Assembly (NCBI GenBank): GCA_965660855.1
Contig: CBFIBM010000001.1
Coordinates: forward strand, 32,001 to 96,000
Direction: 5' to 3'
Length of the DNA: 64,000 bases
DNA from: an uncultured bacterium
GTDB taxonomy: Bacteria; Fidelibacterota; Marinisomatia; Marinisomatales; UBA1611
Notes under the pieces: model-generated
Seen by the model: the letters and a program-made list of their open reading frames with translations, nothing else
Database searches by the model: none
Told to the model about the DNA's origin: nothing
Position numbers and translations under genes: made by a program
Shown: piece by piece, positions 44 to 5,667 of the stretch
How positions within the stretch are numbered: the first letter of the stretch is position 1
Layout of the letters: every line of letters begins with the position of its first letter

Positions 44-1288
44 CTAAGAATTTTTAATTTTTCGATTCTGTGATAGACTTCCAAGGAAGAAAAAGAATAA
101 TGTTCCAGATGTAACAGAGTCTATTACATGACCACCAAAAAATGCATATAATAAAAATAAAGAAAAAACTAAACCATCTCTTGTAAAAATTATTTTAATA
201 TATGTCTGGATATTCCAAAAAATGATTACTAGAAATAAAACAAGGCCAACTATCCCATATTTGAAAAAAAAGTCAAAAAAATCCATTGATGCATGTCTGA
301 AAATAAATTCTCCGCGTTTCTCCCAAAAAATATTTTGACCCGTTAAACTTTTTCCAAATAATGCTGAATTTAAATTTTTATAAGATTCATTCATCTGGAT
401 GTTCATGGATGCATATCTTCTAAAATTAACAGATGCAACGTTATTAATCATTTTATTATCATAAAGTCCACCAACTTTTTCTGCAGCCGCTATTGATTTA
501 CTAATATTGAGCCCAAATCTTTTTTCATAAAGTTCAATAGCTTTTTCTGATATTGTAGAAAAAGATAAAATCATAATAAATGAGGAAAATGTATAGAATA
601 TCAACTTATTCAAACTAAGGTATTTTCTCTTTAAAGCAAAAAAGATTGGTATTATGAATCCAAAAATACTTTTTGATGCTATTATAAAACCGTTAAATAA
701 GGTAAAAGAAATTGGAATAATTTTTCTTCTTAATGTACCATCCATTATAAAAAAAGTGAAGAAAATTAGATTCAAAATTGATACTGGGTTTCCTCCTTGG
801 AACATTCCTTTCGAAGTACCTGAAAAACGATATGCTTCTAAGCCAAATCCAAAAAAATAACCATTGAACAGGTTTAAGGTTAGAACAGTAAAGTTAATAA
901 GCATGATTTTTTGTATCAAGTTTTCAGTAATAAAAAATCTGTTTCTGACATAAACTAGAATGAAAATTAAAAATTGCTGTCTTAAAATATATGGAATGTT
1001 TTCTGAGAACATCCGACCAGAGGGATTAATTATATAATTAAAGAATAAGTTGAAAATAAAATAACATAATATTAAAATTGCAAAAAATTCATCAGCATAT
1101 AATTTTTTTTTTTTTAATTGATAAACGTAATAAAAAATTAATATTAAAACTAGAGGACCTCTTACCCAATATCCAATATTAAATAAAGGGTTTGTAATTC
1201 CGATATAAACTCTTATAAACCCACTAATTGCATCAATAAATAAAAATAAATATAAATAATGCTTAATTAAAAAATTTAGGTTCAGCAT
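44..1288 (-). CDS. O-antigen/polysaccharide polymerase or ligase-like polytopic membrane protein (Wzy/WaaL-like)
   Basis: 414 aa with about 10 hydrophobic segments, a large loop, and a late H-x-D-x-F-D...YGIVG motif of the Wzy_C type; adjacent to wzx/wzz. Confidence 0.7.
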   Translation of the reverse strand: MLNLNFLIKHYLYLFLFIDAISGFIRVYIGITNPLFNIGYWVRGPLVLILIFYYVYQLKKKKLYADEFFAILILCYFIFNLFFNYIINPSGRMFSENIPYILRQQFLIFILVYVRNRFFITENLIQKIMLINFTVLTLNLFNGYFFGFGLEAYRFSGTSKGMFQGGNPVSILNLIFFTFFIMDGTLRRKIIPISFTLFNGFIIASKSIFGFIIPIFFALKRKYLSLNKLIFYTFSSFIMILSFSTISEKAIELYEKRFGLNISKSIAAAEKVGGLYDNKMINNVASVNFRRYASMNIQMNESYKNLNSALFGKSLTGQNIFWEKRGEFIFRHASMDFFDFFFKYGIVGLVLFLVIIFWNIQTYIKIIFTRDGLVFSLFLLYAFFGGHVIDSVTSGTLFFFFLGSLSQNRKIKNS

Positions 1289-2517
1289 ATATTTATTTTT
1301 TTCTTCAATAAATTTATTTTAGTTATTGCAGTAGCTATTTGAAATCCTATTCCAACTAGAATACCAATTGTATAGCCTATAGCTACTCCCAATAACCCTA
1401 AATTGGGGATTAATAACAACCAAGTAGCCAATGACACAGTTAAGATTATAATACCTCCAATATTAGGATAAATAACATATTTTGTTCCTGACAAAAAAGC
1501 AACAAATGGTATTGAGATCATTCGGATAAATACACTCGGAATTAAGATAGTTAATGCTGCGCTTCCAGAAATAAAATTTTCTCCAAATATTCCAAGGATA
1601 TCTTCAGAGAAAACAAAGATTAAAGAACAAATTGAAAAAGACAAAAAAATTAACAATAATGTTGATTTTTTTAATATTCTCAGAATTTCATCAAAATTAT
1701 TTTGACCAAATAACTTGGAAAACTCCGGAAGAAAAACTTGAGTAAATAGTTTAGGTATAAACATTAAAATACTAATAAACGATAAAATAGATGAGTATAT
1801 ACCGGCTTCAGAATTTGTTAAATACATTCCTGTAATAATTACTGATAAATAACCAGTTCCAGTGCTAGCCACAGTACCAATCATACTTGTAAAACCATAT
1901 TTGTAAAATATAGATGAGGTGACCTTACTATTAAATGTTTTATCTTCAATTAAATTGGATATAATTTTTTTATAATTTAGGATAAATGTGATTACAGATA
2001 ATATGATAAAAAATGAATAAGAAATAATAAGAGTTTTAATTAATAATGCATCCAATTTATTTGTACAAACGTACAAAATAGAACAAACCATTATTAATCC
2101 TGAAACTATTTCAATAATTACATATTGTTTGACTAAGTCTATACCGTAGAAGGCTCTTCTAAAAATTATATAAAAAGTTCTAACAAATATATAAACTAAT
2201 ATCGTTATTCTTATGTCGGCAGGTAATGAAAACAAATTATAAAATGAAGACCATCCAAAATAAATAATTATTGAGGATATAATAAGAGATATGAATGATC
2301 CAAAAAATATTAATTTTATTACATGGTTGAATTTATTCAAATTTTGAGATCCTCTGTATTCTGCTAAAAACTTATTGCCAGAACTTCCAAAAAAATTTGT
2401 TATAAAAATTGTGATAATTAATGAAAAGCTTATTGAAATACTAACTGAGCCTAAAACCTCATCACCAAAATTTTTTGCAATAAGGAAATTAAATAGAAAT
2501 GGTACTAGTCCAACCAT
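1282..2517 (-). CDS. wzx: Oligosaccharide flippase (Wzx/MOP family); the frame stays open upstream to 2583, so the true start may be earlier
   Basis: About 12 TM segments with MOP motifs (AGIYSS, VFLPEFSKLF, LIPNLGLLGVAIG); operon context. Confidence 0.8.
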   Translation of the reverse strand: MVGLVPFLFNFLIAKNFGDEVLGSVSISISFSLIITIFITNFFGSSGNKFLAEYRGSQNLNKFNHVIKLIFFGSFISLIISSIIIYFGWSSFYNLFSLPADIRITILVYIFVRTFYIIFRRAFYGIDLVKQYVIIEIVSGLIMVCSILYVCTNKLDALLIKTLIISYSFFIILSVITFILNYKKIISNLIEDKTFNSKVTSSIFYKYGFTSMIGTVASTGTGYLSVIITGMYLTNSEAGIYSSILSFISILMFIPKLFTQVFLPEFSKLFGQNNFDEILRILKKSTLLLIFLSFSICSLIFVFSEDILGIFGENFISGSAALTILIPSVFIRMISIPFVAFLSGTKYVIYPNIGGIIILTVSLATWLLLIPNLGLLGVAIGYTIGILVGIGFQIATAITKINLLKKKINIC

Positions 2518-2583: not shown

Positions 2584-3783
2584 TTAATTTTTTCGATCAG
2601 AAAATAACGCAAAAGGGATAGAAAGCATACATCCTGTAAAAAATGATAGTATGACAATAAGAGTTCTCTTAGGCCTAGATTTTTTAACAGCCGGTTCAGC
2701 TAAATCTAGAATATTTATTAGTAGCTTTTCTTTGGCTTCATCAATTTTTGCTATTTCAAGCTGTTGACGAATTGTTATATATACAGTCCTATTCTCTTCA
2801 ACACGACTTTCGAGCCTTTCTCTAATCATTTCCGTGGTAGGAGTATCAAGGCGTAATGGATTATTTTTTCGAAATTTTGTAAGTTTGTCTTCTGAGTTTT
2901 CTGTTTTTAATTTTGCTTCTTCCATTTGCTTCTGCACAAAAATAATATTTCTATTTGCTTCCCTTTTCTGTTCTATAGAAATAAAGTTTTTTACATATTC
3001 TGCTATATAATTTGCAATGTTTGAAGCTAGTATTGGATCCTCCATTTGAACTCGAACAGTTATTAAACCTGAAATTTCTTCTTTTACAGAAATTAAATCA
3101 TCTAACTTTAAAATCGATTCATATGTGTACAAGTCTAATTTATTAAGATTTTGGCTACCTGATGGAAGAATGCTCCGTATTATTTTCATTGGTGAAAACA
3201 TTTTTATTTTATCTATTTCCCAATAGGTAATAAGGTTTGAACCTTTTGGGTATTTTTGTGATTTCCAATCTTTAAGAACAATATCTTTTTTTAACCTTCT
3301 ACTTCTAATAATATCAGGAATATTGTAGGTAGGTGCACTAGAGAGCCCGCCCATGCCAAAAGATTTTGCTAAACCTTGAAAATCTCCTAAAATACCTCCG
3401 CTTTGGCTTAGCTCACCCGCAGGGTATAATGAAATATTTGACTCAAAATAAATGGTAGCAATCAGGGAATAAGTCAAGCCAATAGTTGTGGATATAAGTG
3501 CAAATTTCACAACTAGTTTTTTCTTATACTTTAAAATATTCCAAATTTCTTTCACATTAATTTCATCATTATCCGTAATCAATGAATCTTGTTCAGATTT
3601 AATATTTTTTTTATCTAAATCTATAAATCCTCTTTTACGAAATTCTGCAATCCTATTTCTTAATGTTTTTTCAGTAAGTCCATTTTGTTTTGCTATGAGG
3701 CTCCTTTCCTCGGGACTGTCAATTATTTTTGGATGTTGCTCAATAATTTTTAATATTTTTTCTTCGTGAGGAGTTAGTTTCAT
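2584..3783 (-). CDS. wzz: Polysaccharide chain-length determinant (Wzz/PCP family) with an extra N-terminal HTH-like domain
   Basis: DEINVKEIW before TM1, a coiled-coil middle, and Pro-rich AEPAVKKSRPKR before TM2; no kinase domain. Residues 1-55 are HTH-like. Confidence 0.8.
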   Translation of the reverse strand: MKLTPHEEKILKIIEQHPKIIDSPEERSLIAKQNGLTEKTLRNRIAEFRKRGFIDLDKKNIKSEQDSLITDNDEINVKEIWNILKYKKKLVVKFALISTTIGLTYSLIATIYFESNISLYPAGELSQSGGILGDFQGLAKSFGMGGLSSAPTYNIPDIIRSRRLKKDIVLKDWKSQKYPKGSNLITYWEIDKIKMFSPMKIIRSILPSGSQNLNKLDLYTYESILKLDDLISVKEEISGLITVRVQMEDPILASNIANYIAEYVKNFISIEQKREANRNIIFVQKQMEEAKLKTENSEDKLTKFRKNNPLRLDTPTTEMIRERLESRVEENRTVYITIRQQLEIAKIDEAKEKLLINILDLAEPAVKKSRPKRTLIVILSFFTGCMLSIPFALFSDRKN

Positions 3784-3790
3784 ATTTTTT

Positions 3791-5485
3791 TTAGTTATTT
3801 TCTAAAATTCGTTGAATAACTACAATTGTAGTAATTATTTGAGAAAAAGCAGTGATTGCTTCTCTAGTTATTATCCATTTTTCATAGTCGGGTTTTTCAG
3901 GAATGAATATTATATCAGTATTTTCAATTATTTGATTTTTTTTAAATTTTTTCTTTTGTCCTGTCGAGGATTTTATTAGAAATCTTTTACTACTTCTTCC
4001 TTTAATTAGGCCACCTGATTGATCAATATAATAAGAGATTGATTTATCTTTTATATATGGATACCTACCAGGCTTATTTACGGCACCTATAACTTCAATG
4101 TAAGGATAATAAGTAGGTATATGGATTTCGTCGTTTGCTAAAATTAATTCTTTAGAATTTTTTAAAATATTTAATTTTGTTTCCAAATACCCTTTCTGCG
4201 ACCTAATTCTAGCTTTTGCATATGCATTTTCATCAGTTGTTCTATTCAAATCATTAATTAATAAGATTCTTTCTAACTCTAAATCGGTCTCTTCTCCAAT
4301 CTCTTTATTATAAATTCTAATTTTACTTGTGTCGGCATATTCTGTAAATCCACCTGCACTTTGAATTAATTTATTAAATGAAGTTGTTAATGGATAAATG
4401 CCTGGATAATTAATTTCTCCGGATATTTTTACCATTTTTTTTGATTTCTTGTAATCTAAGTAGGGAATCATTACCTGATCTTCAGGAGATAACTTAAAAG
4501 AATTTTTTTCACCAAGACTTAAGTAAGTAGACTTACTGTCAAACTTATTCGAATGAATGATTTCCACTTTGATCTCTTTTATATCCTTTTTGAGACCTCC
4601 AGATAACTCGATGAGGTCTTCCAGTGTATCACCGTATTTATATTCATAGCTACCTGCATTTTGTATTCCTCCGTAGATATAATTTTTATATTCTATAAAT
4701 GGGATATTAATTATATCTCCTTGATTTATATACGGGTTTTGGGAAATGTCGCCCGTAGATTGAAATCTTTGAAGATCTATATTAATGGTATCATTAGCCC
4801 TAATAACTTTAATGTTTCTTTTAGATAATTTTTTGAAATCTATTAAGTCTTTATTCTCAGGTATCCGATTATTGTACAACTCTTCAATTGAATAACTATT
4901 TTGGTAATTAGAATTTTCCTTGCTGTTTTTTTCAGATTTGTTACTTAGTTCTTCTTGTATTTGCTCCTCATATTTCTGTGTTACATCAGCAAATAAATCC
5001 GATATACGACTGATGGCTGTAGATGAAAAATATCCAGCATTTTTAAAATGACCAGTAACAAGAACTTTAAATTCGCGTATTCCTTCTAATTCAACATTTA
5101 CTTGAGCATCTAGATTCCAAGTCTTTATCTTATTTCTAATAAGTTTAATGAGCTGATCAAGAGTTAATTTGTTAGTTTTGATTATACCAACGGAAGGAAT
5201 TAAAAGTTCACCGGAGGGTGATATGATAAGATTATAATCAAATGTTTCATTGCTAGAAATAACATTTATATGAATTTTATCGCCAGGGCCAACCCTATAA
5301 TCTTCAGGTATCACAGATTTATCTAAAATGAATAAGTCCTTTTTCCCAGAATTTGAAGAATAGTTTGCATTAGAGGTATTTGCCTTTGCCATTCTTTTTT
5401 GTGCCATACGTAGGGAATTAATATCTAAAGTTTGTAATTGTGGCAAGCAGTGAATAGTTAATACTATAACAAGAATTCGTTTCAT
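3791..5485 (-). CDS. Polysaccharide export protein with Poly_export and multiple SLBB domains (Wza/KpsD-like)
   Basis: Signal peptide, DYRVGPGD poly_export motif, repeated G-(E/A)-(I/V)-xxPG-x-Y ... (S/A)GG SLBB units, C-terminal amphipathic helix. Confidence 0.85.
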   Translation of the reverse strand: MKRILVIVLTIHCLPQLQTLDINSLRMAQKRMAKANTSNANYSSNSGKKDLFILDKSVIPEDYRVGPGDKIHINVISSNETFDYNLIISPSGELLIPSVGIIKTNKLTLDQLIKLIRNKIKTWNLDAQVNVELEGIREFKVLVTGHFKNAGYFSSTAISRISDLFADVTQKYEEQIQEELSNKSEKNSKENSNYQNSYSIEELYNNRIPENKDLIDFKKLSKRNIKVIRANDTINIDLQRFQSTGDISQNPYINQGDIINIPFIEYKNYIYGGIQNAGSYEYKYGDTLEDLIELSGGLKKDIKEIKVEIIHSNKFDSKSTYLSLGEKNSFKLSPEDQVMIPYLDYKKSKKMVKISGEINYPGIYPLTTSFNKLIQSAGGFTEYADTSKIRIYNKEIGEETDLELERILLINDLNRTTDENAYAKARIRSQKGYLETKLNILKNSKELILANDEIHIPTYYPYIEVIGAVNKPGRYPYIKDKSISYYIDQSGGLIKGRSSKRFLIKSSTGQKKKFKKNQIIENTDIIFIPEKPDYEKWIITREAITAFSQIITTIVVIQRILENN

Positions 5486-5509
5486 AATTTTAATTTATTT
5501 TTTTTGGAT

Positions 5510-5606
5510 ATGATTACAGGAACGGATCTCTATCCTTTTATATTTTCAGTTATTTTTTATTTGTTAAACTAATAGCAGTTTAAATCGATAGAGTATCCTG
5601 AATCAT
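5510..5606. promoter_or_regulatory. Nested inverted repeats; putative structured leader or small RNA upstream of the polysaccharide operon
   Basis: GGATCTCTATC (5524-5534) pairs with GATAGAG-T-ATCC (5587-5598). Outer pairings ATGATT/AATCAT and CAGGA/TCCTG; inner hairpin TTAAACT/AGTTTAA (5564-5583). Confidence 0.4.
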
Positions 5607-5649
5607 TATTGAAATTATTCCTATTATTAGGGACATGCAAACAAATTAT

Positions 5650-5667
5650 TGCCCGGGCATATGCCCG
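5650..5667. promoter_or_regulatory. GC-rich overlapping palindromes, candidate operator
   Basis: TGCCCGGGCA (5650-5659) and CGGGCATATGCCCG (5654-5667) are both perfect palindromes, set in an AT-rich divergent intergenic region. Confidence 0.35.

Follow-up and report, generated by a model that had tools for sequence, protein, structure and literature searches.

A Wzz-type polysaccharide co-polymerase with an N-terminal helix-turn-helix domain in Marinimicrobia, and a candidate operator upstream of its operon

Studies of polysaccharide co-polymerases (PCPs) such as Wzz, WzzE and Wzc have treated them as regulators of chain length and export that act purely structurally, with a known regulatory link by way of tyrosine kinases; canonical members have only a short N-terminal tail. 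Among regulators that reside in the membrane, CadC is reported to be able to find its chromosomal sites while membrane-integrated (PMC6320335, PMC7888679), and streptococcal CpsA (LytR-CpsA-Psr) is reported to bind and regulate the cps promoter (Hanson et al. 2010, 2012, cited in PMC11739294), a role that is disputed, as according to the citing paper it was not confirmed in strain D39. We describe here HTH-wzz, a gene in which a PCP is preceded by a helix-turn-helix (HTH) domain (the head), located in a 64,000-nucleotide (nt) stretch from an uncultured bacterium of the Marinimicrobia/Fidelibacterota (contig CBFIBM010000001.1, positions 32,001 to 96,000), which is called the window below. The fusion is a real, conserved and apparently undescribed domain architecture, and a lineage-specific palindrome, GCCCGGGC, at the putative promoter of the adjoining wza-like gene makes more plausible the suggestion of the initial annotation of this DNA that such a protein could regulate its own operon. 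The parts of the gene are as follows:

2584..3783, minus strand: HTH-wzz gene, 399 amino acids (aa), coordinates including the stop codon
3619..3783, minus strand: N-terminal three-helix HTH domain, residues 1-55, predicted cytoplasmic (profile, AlphaFold2 and Foldseek)
3568..3618, minus strand: variable Lys-rich linker, residues 56-72 (alignments and model)
3460..3522, minus strand: transmembrane helix 1, model helix 88-108, following KYKKK (AlphaFold2 model)
2590..2817, minus strand: GNVR region, residues 323-394, with transmembrane helix 2, model helix 373-398 (Pfam and model)

Translation of the open reading frame (ORF) at 2584-3783 on the minus strand gives 399 residues with the N-terminus MKLTPHEEKILKIIEQHPKII. 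A Wzz gene with an N-terminal extension of about 55 residues (nt 3783-3619) had been proposed in the initial annotation and is confirmed, the sequence quoted there being exact and both body domains scoring above their Pfam cut-offs: Wzz (PF02706, residues 73-126) at 30.5 bits versus 25.5, and GNVR (PF13807, residues 323-394) at 41.8 bits versus 27.7. About 70 residues in all precede the usual D-E-I start of Wzz. The full-length AlphaFold2 model, with a predicted local distance difference test score (pLDDT) of 79, consists in order of the head, a disordered segment (residues 57-65, pLDDT <50), an amphipathic helix, membrane helix 88-108, an alpha/beta base, a hairpin and membrane helix 373-398, the long helical hairpin of the periplasmic part being formed by helices 250-307 and 315-350. 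Its best Foldseek matches are Wzc from Wza-Wzc complexes (9r6b_I, E 9e-12) and WzzE (8p3p_A, E 1e-9), both with probability 1.00, and also KpsE. The protein stops just past transmembrane helix 2, with no C-terminal bacterial tyrosine kinase (BY-kinase) domain and no Tyr-rich tail. Judged from these matches and the model, the body is a kinase-less PCP of the Wzx/Wzy/Wza pathway, and the head should face the cytoplasm, given the KYKKK before helix 1 and the known N-in topology of the family.

The structure prediction that the initial annotation had proposed for residues 1-60 returned a confident three-helix HTH (pLDDT >90 over residues 10-50): in the AlphaFold2 model of the head built with an alignment (pLDDT 84 overall, 91-95 over residues 11-50), helices span residues 5-16, 18-21, 24-33 and 38-51, and helix 3 carries EKTLRNR. 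Among 39 heads that are 44-61% identical to that of the window, 11 columns are invariant (E7, P18, R27, A31 and E38-K39-T40-L41-R42-N43-R44). HTH_24 (PF13412) is matched by 31 of the 39 at E<=0.01 (best 7e-7), with one relative, P0269, exceeding the family cut-off (23.6 versus 21.9 bits), and the other families matched are nearly all HTH DNA-binding families, for example HTH_28 and CggR_N; on residues 1-60 of the window's protein, Pfam matches are all to HTH families and all below threshold, HTH_24 scoring 18.4 bits when the head is scanned by itself. The head profile matches the C-terminal DNA-binding winged HTH of Csa3 (E 1.2e-6), strikingly so over helices 2-3, followed by GerE, LrpA, PH1519 and MecI; around helix 3, 'AK..GL(T/S)EKTLRNRIAELKK.G' of the head aligns with 'AKMLDKSEKTLINKIAELKKFG' of Csa3. 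The first Foldseek match of the head is the Lrp/AsnC HTH 1i1g_A (probability 0.99, root-mean-square deviation 2.2 A over 52 residues, E 0.12), and the structural neighbors listed are mostly DNA-binding HTH domains, with E-values that all exceed 0.1, a common outcome for domains of this small size. There is no C-terminal RAM domain, the HTH being followed by the linker and the PCP; a search of the ESM Atlas with residues 1-66 gave no usable match. The head probably belongs to the HTH_24/Lrp kind of three-helix HTH, and its sequence and modeled fold suggest that it may bind DNA. The class named in the initial annotation, a winged HTH of Lrp/AsnC/HTH_24 type, stands as to kind, on the 31 of 39 heads, Foldseek and Csa3, and is unsupported as to 'winged', no wing being predicted.

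The fusion is widespread in the phylum. A word-indexed search returned 495 relatives, of which the best 120 are almost all of ~400 aa with 99-100% query coverage and are placed in the Marinimicrobia/Neomarinimicrobiota by two source names. An exhaustive search of 50%-identity representatives returned 5729 matches in three groups: head-bearing proteins, either of ~400 aa or long forms of 432-502 aa whose overall identity is only 25-31%; close relatives that lack the head, such as P0125 (339 aa, 52% identical), which start at the D-E-I motif at query residue ~70; and proteins with a different N-terminal head. The head, starting at M-(K/E)-L-T-x-H-E, is present in 16/16 and 15/15 of the full-length relatives aligned and in 135 of 158 fetched loci screened. 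A scan of one genome per species gave 259 relatives, of which 80 were kept, mostly metagenome-assembled genomes titled Marinimicrobia, Neomarinimicrobiota, Fidelibacterota or FCB group. The taxonomic spread that the initial annotation had asked after was mapped with a head-only profile (39 sequences, 66 columns) against 401 sampled genomes, assigned to the phylum by their record titles: it is matched in 105 of the 401, in 60/190 high-quality genomes, in 41/114 genera and, within the window's own family, in 35/43 genomes, nearly always once per genome and inside open frames of ~390-600 aa. The concern that homologs might start at DEI proved partly correct, in that HTH-less relatives exist, but more than 100 genomes carry the fusion. 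Head matches with fused-length frames contain no stops; one TAA occurs in a marginal match (E 3.7e-6). Sequence conservation in the head (44-61% identity, invariant EKTLRNR) far exceeds that in the body (25-31% in the long forms), a difference that suggests a single conserved partner.

Metatranscriptome contigs from four runs (95-100% identity; for example 3574-3925 and 3396-3592) span the head, the linker, membrane helix 1 and the wza junction without interruption, and an assembly artefact or chance fusion is ruled out by these continuous contigs together with the conserved relatives and the spread among genomes. A stand-alone head was not found among 10 inspected of 72 matches to shorter proteins (including 7 on contigs >20 kb), all 10 looking like truncated or frameshifted pieces of the fused gene; P0281 (66 aa, on a 20-kb contig) may be a true short form. 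Two contigs in Alpha- and Gammaproteobacteria bins (L014, 2964 nt, and L066, 2414 nt) carry a typical Marinimicrobia-like HTH-wzz at 64% and 36% identity, probably through mis-binning rather than transfer. In agreement with the initial annotation, which knew of no such architecture, no description of an HTH-Wzz fusion was found in a full-text literature that mostly excludes subscription journals; some members already bear automatic labels, 'winged helix-turn-helix transcriptional regulator' for P0343 at NCBI and 'DNA-binding Lrp family transcriptional regulator' for the fragment P0202 at JGI.

In the wza-like gene and upstream of it the following features occur:

3791..5485, minus strand: wza-like outer-membrane polysaccharide export gene (Poly_export and SLBB, by Pfam)
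5612..5640, minus strand: putative sigma-70-type wza promoter, with -35 TTGCAT at 5635-5640, a 17-nt spacer and -10 TAATTT at 5612-5617 (conservation)
5651..5667, no strand assigned: GCCCGGGC at 5651-5658 overlapping the perfect palindrome CGGGCATATGCCCG at 5654-5667, GC-rich, candidate operator
5282..5289, no strand assigned: one-mismatch copy of GCCCGGGC, reading GCCCTGGC on the minus strand, at the wza G-P-G-D codons (alignment with relatives)

The spacer of 260 nt that separates wza from the divergent serS shows strong conservation. Across 20 aligned loci, the putative promoter, whose position was read from conservation, has invariant TTG and TA...T positions with a 17-nt spacing between the hexamers, and GCCCGGGC is invariant in 20/20 spacers at 10-11 nt upstream of the -35 box. 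The 2.09-Mb genome (31% GC) has four copies of GCCCGGGC, of which three are inside genes and the only intergenic one is that of the wza/serS spacer. Across 118 non-identical head-bearing loci, 140 copies occur in the 323 kb upstream of the HTH-wzz start versus none in the 459 kb from the start onward, and the runner-up GC-rich 8-bp palindrome has nine upstream copies. The word is present in 70 of the 75 HTH loci that have at least 2700 nt of upstream sequence; by eye, no conservation beyond the 8-mer is seen in the flanks of its different site classes. An attribution to serS is less likely, copies recurring at wza where serS is not adjacent. GCCCGGGC is a candidate binding site of the head.

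Within genes, the same word is kept at synonymous positions. A second copy is found in most close relatives ~390 nt downstream, at G-P-G of the Wza motif V-G-P-G-D: the codons GGC CCG GGC, which hold an exact GCCCGGGC, encode G-P-G in 50 of 73 wza genes, versus 0.26% expected from codon use elsewhere in the same genes (GGC, 15% of Gly codons; CCG, 11.7% of Pro codons). Two other clades have GCCCGGGC in the A-R-A codons of the Wza signal peptide, and several long-form loci have it in E-P-G-L or A-R-A of ugd. As read from codon usage, this is an overlapping DNA-level code in genes of genomes with 28-40% GC, and such strict conservation of a DNA word at synonymous codons is a clean example of overlapping codes.

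GCCCGGGC tracks the presence and type of the head. It is absent from all ten same-phylum loci examined whose Wzz is head-less (frames of 332-374 aa; most with ~4.5 kb of upstream DNA and two with less; GC 23-47%), seven of which have a GPGD-bearing wza-like ORF upstream; from 5/5 same-phylum loci in which the Wzz bears an XRE-type HTH; and from 5/5 low-GC, HTH-less loci of other phyla. A metagenome scan for HTH-less close relatives returned mostly HTH-bearing ones, and L149, the sole HTH-less locus with enough upstream DNA, is without GCCCGGGC.

The XRE-type proteins form a second class of PCP fusion in the phylum. P0164, P0176 and P0175 have HTH_3 (XRE), Wzz and GNVR all above the Pfam cut-offs, and ESM Atlas clusters of 55, 260 and 59 members combine Wzz/GNVR with HTH_3 or Phage_CI_repr, Fidelibacterota being the commonest phylum. 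One genome (G237) has both kinds of head, and in one genus (g19) the 18 genomes searched have no HTH_24-type head and two have the XRE type. Three XRE-type loci (L179, L180 and L181) share a promoter, ACCTTTGACAT(A/C)TCGTCAATAACATGTAATTTT, just upstream of wza, in which the palindrome TTGACnnnnnGTCAA lies over the -35 box of TTGACA-17-TAATTT. In another locus, of the P0164 type (L183:2223-2595), the spacer upstream of the wza-like gene contains three direct copies of AAAATCG(G/A)TT. Since two unrelated classes (HTH_24-like and XRE/HTH_3-type) occur on one PCP subfamily, an HTH at this position seems to have been selected for what HTHs do.

On balance, we lean slightly toward HTH-Wzz being a membrane-tethered autoregulator. 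In this reading the cytoplasmic N-terminus of a PCP has acquired a small HTH_24/Lrp-like domain on a flexible linker of ~20 residues. Once the PCP has oligomerised, its heads would read GCCCGGGC 10-11 nt upstream of the -35 box of a wza-(HTH)wzz-wzx-wzy operon, and perhaps also bind the second copy inside wza, so that transcription of the operon would respond to how much export machinery is assembled or to its state. The analysis establishes the architecture and its conservation, the folds of head and PCP with the topology of the latter, the pairing with wza, and the enrichment and synonymous-site conservation of GCCCGGGC in the lineage; DNA binding by the head, GCCCGGGC as its site, the promoter position, the sign of the regulation and a coupling to polymer assembly are aspects that we infer.

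Several points weigh against an autoregulator. The window's own head scores 18.0-18.4 bits against HTH_24, below the Pfam cut-off of 21.9. Neither model predicts a dimerisation element in the head, and neither has a strand of at least 3 residues between residues 51 and 76 that could form a beta wing after helix 3, which is weak evidence of absence given the low confidence of that region (pLDDT 46-68). HTH domains on membrane proteins can serve as protein adaptors, as in RodZ. GCCCGGGC, an 8-bp palindrome whose half-sites measure 4 bp, would be a short site of unusual spacing for a classical HTH dimer; five of the 75 HTH loci lack it within 4 kb; one subgroup (L015, L021, L027 and L029) has it ~70 nt further from the best promoter; and the window's second copy has a mismatch. 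Some long-form matches, falling in conserved enzyme motifs of genomes with 36-45% GC, could be partly due to chance. The comparison of loci with and without the head follows phylogeny, related loci not being independent; EKTLRNR and GCCCGGGC are both invariant, which makes co-variation of reader and site untestable; and another, unseen regulator could read GCCCGGGC.

A bolder form of autoregulation, which we consider unlikely, makes the ring-shaped PCP both sensor and transcription factor, its several flexible heads clamping two GCCCGGGC copies (one at about -50, the other ~390 nt downstream inside wza) and looping the promoter DNA to the membrane. When the periplasmic ring engages Wza, Wzy or the growing polymer, the spacing of the heads would change and the loop be released or tightened; if true, polysaccharide export would feed back on transcription through one protein and without a kinase. 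Such an arrangement would appear to have arisen more than once in the phylum, with the HTH_24-like and the XRE/HTH_3-type class of head.

Next in standing, and unlikely in our estimate, is that the head is a protein-protein adaptor docking a conserved cytoplasmic partner (a glycosyltransferase, an initiating transferase, or a cytoskeletal or regulatory protein) onto the PCP, with GCCCGGGC read by something else. RodZ has the same topology of N-terminal HTH, membrane anchor and periplasmic domain, the very high conservation of the head would fit a conserved protein partner equally well, and no wing or dimer element is predicted in the head. Against an adaptor, GCCCGGGC follows head presence and type (70/75 versus 0/10 and 0/5), and the best sequence and fold matches of the head are nearly all DNA-binding domains; the swap to an unrelated XRE class fits the reading of DNA better than a single fixed protein partner, and no conserved extra cytoplasmic gene was seen beside the wza/HTH-wzz pair in related loci.

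Somewhat less probable is a head that acts as a DNA tether, holding the transcribed wza operon at the membrane beside the machinery under assembly and aiding co-translational insertion with promoter activity unchanged. The evidence for DNA reading serves a tether as well as an autoregulator, the operon products are all envelope proteins, and sites inside coding regions (wza, ugd) are odd for a classical operator; but the best conserved site is fixed at 10-11 nt from the -35 box in 20/20 spacers, which is typical of promoter control, and the palindrome of the XRE-type loci overlaps the -35 box itself.

Between the putative promoter and wza, close relatives share a further element that bears on a role in RNA binding:

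5501..5600, minus strand: conserved structured 5' leader, with P1 formed by 5587-5598 and 5524-5534 and a hairpin by 5577-5582 and 5565-5570

In relatives a pseudoknot is possible between a GCC loop and a downstream GGC. Across 30 sequences the pairing holds in 88.5% of cells versus 22-54% in slid controls, a comparison that favors the leader because its structure was read from single-sequence folds of the same sequences, and the covariation score (0.192 versus 0.107) is reached by 0/500 shuffles. RNAalifold on MAFFT alignments recovers only 2-3 pairs because the 3' half is misaligned, and an Rfam search of the spacer and leader gave a best E of 0.39, with all matches far below gathering scores. 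Two RNA-library contigs from two studies end inside the leader, at 5556 and 5558, a weak hint as to the transcript 5' end; the RNA-library contigs extend no further than 5578, short of the palindrome and the serS start, and the gap in coverage carries no evidence. Judged from the pairing pattern, the leader may represent a new cis-regulatory RNA associated with wza operons in Marinimicrobia. That the head binds this structured leader of the wza mRNA, controlling translation or placing the mRNA at the membrane, is nonetheless very improbable: the covarying leader and weak profile matches of the head to ribosomal protein eS17 (E 0.004-0.3) would favor it, but the leader is seen only in the close loci (serS-adjacent, ~400 aa) whereas the head is invariant in long-form loci too, and the eS17 matches are far weaker than that to Csa3. 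HTH_24-type domains are not known to bind RNA. It is scarcely credible that the head survives from an old gene fusion as a decaying or neutral remnant without present function: close relatives that lack the HTH look like functional PCPs and hold the same operon position, but the head has 11 invariant columns (seven of them consecutive in helix 3) among 39 sequences only 44-61% identical to the window's, has no stops where the frame is of fused length, and is better conserved than the body.

The genes around HTH-wzz are those of a Wzx/Wzy-dependent system. Two of them lie downstream in the window on the same strand:

1282..2517, minus strand: Wzx-type flippase
44..1288, minus strand: O-antigen-ligase/Wzy-like membrane protein

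The wza-like gene ends 7 nt upstream of the HTH-wzz ATG, and in RNA-library contigs from three runs the A/T run at window position 3784, between the wza stop and that ATG, varies by one or two additional T. The minus-strand cluster is ordered wza, HTH-wzz (second), Wzx-type flippase, Wzy/ligase-like gene, GT4, DUF354, Bac_transf initiating transferase and a 447-aa ORF, the GT4, DUF354 and Bac_transf genes belonging to the part beyond the window, and a convergent ugd-rmlC-rmlB-rmlA set comes after it; Wza, Wzx and Wzy-type partners are thus all encoded alongside HTH-wzz. The 447-aa ORF (L002:14200-15543, minus strand) and a 696-aa ORF (L002:8306-10396, plus strand) in or beside the cluster have no Pfam match at E<=1e-5. 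In the related loci examined, the wza-like gene is immediately upstream of HTH-wzz and is preceded by the spacer to serS in the close ~400-aa forms and by rml/ugd genes in the long forms. The sole TIGR01007 match above cut-off in the genome (208 bits) is a separate gene on contig C36 (L081:3-1595), cut by the contig start, which encodes a classical Wzc-type BY-kinase with the tail YGSYYYYYYHQYNNYY. The adjoining L081:1606-3042, its translation read by eye, resembles a fusion of sulfate adenylyltransferase and adenosine 5'-phosphosulfate kinase, and such a neighbor would hint at a second, possibly sulfated, polysaccharide system.

If a PCP does read DNA, it would provide a direct route from an envelope machine to a promoter, and would be a new class among the few membrane-integrated transcription factors. 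The case is unusually testable, as the domain has 55 residues and an invariant third helix, the 8-bp word is rare and has a fixed promoter position, and the phylum supplies natural controls in its HTH-less relatives and in XRE-type relatives with a different palindrome. The Marinimicrobia (SAR406) are abundant, mostly uncultured ocean bacteria, in which the control of surface polysaccharide bears on particle attachment and carbon export.

HTH-Wzz has features of several described systems. With the Wzz, WzzE and Wzc PCPs (8p3p, 8bhw, 6rbg, 9r6b and 7nhr) it shares Wzz and GNVR domains above cut-off, two membrane helices flanking a periplasmic alpha/beta base with a long helical hairpin, and a gene position between wza and the wzx/wzy genes; it differs from them in its ~70 extra N-terminal residues with an HTH, and from the PCP-2a proteins (Wzc/Etk) in having no C-terminal BY-kinase. 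The three-helix HTH core of the head is that of the HTH_24/Lrp-AsnC and Csa3 domains (1i1g, 2cg4, 2cyy and 6w11), but unlike the Lrp/AsnC and Csa3 proteins the head has neither a RAM or CARF effector domain nor a predicted wing, and is tethered to the membrane via the PCP. RodZ has a similar layout, its cytoplasmic HTH at the N-terminus being followed by a membrane anchor and a periplasmic domain, but that HTH is of the XRE type and contacts MreB rather than DNA, and it belongs to the cell-shape machinery, not to polysaccharide export. CpsA is also a membrane protein encoded in a Wzy-type capsule locus; its extracellular LCP domain is unrelated and has no recognisable HTH fold. In predicted topology HTH-Wzz is like the ToxR/CadC-type regulators, a single chain that runs from a cytoplasmic N-terminal domain of DNA-binding type through a membrane anchor to a periplasmic domain. 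Those regulators have an OmpR-type winged helix (Trans_reg_C, to which the heads gave no match at E<=1 in the Pfam scan), a single membrane helix and a sensor domain, whereas HTH-Wzz combines an HTH_24-like head with two membrane helices, and its periplasmic part is a working component of the export machine in its own right.

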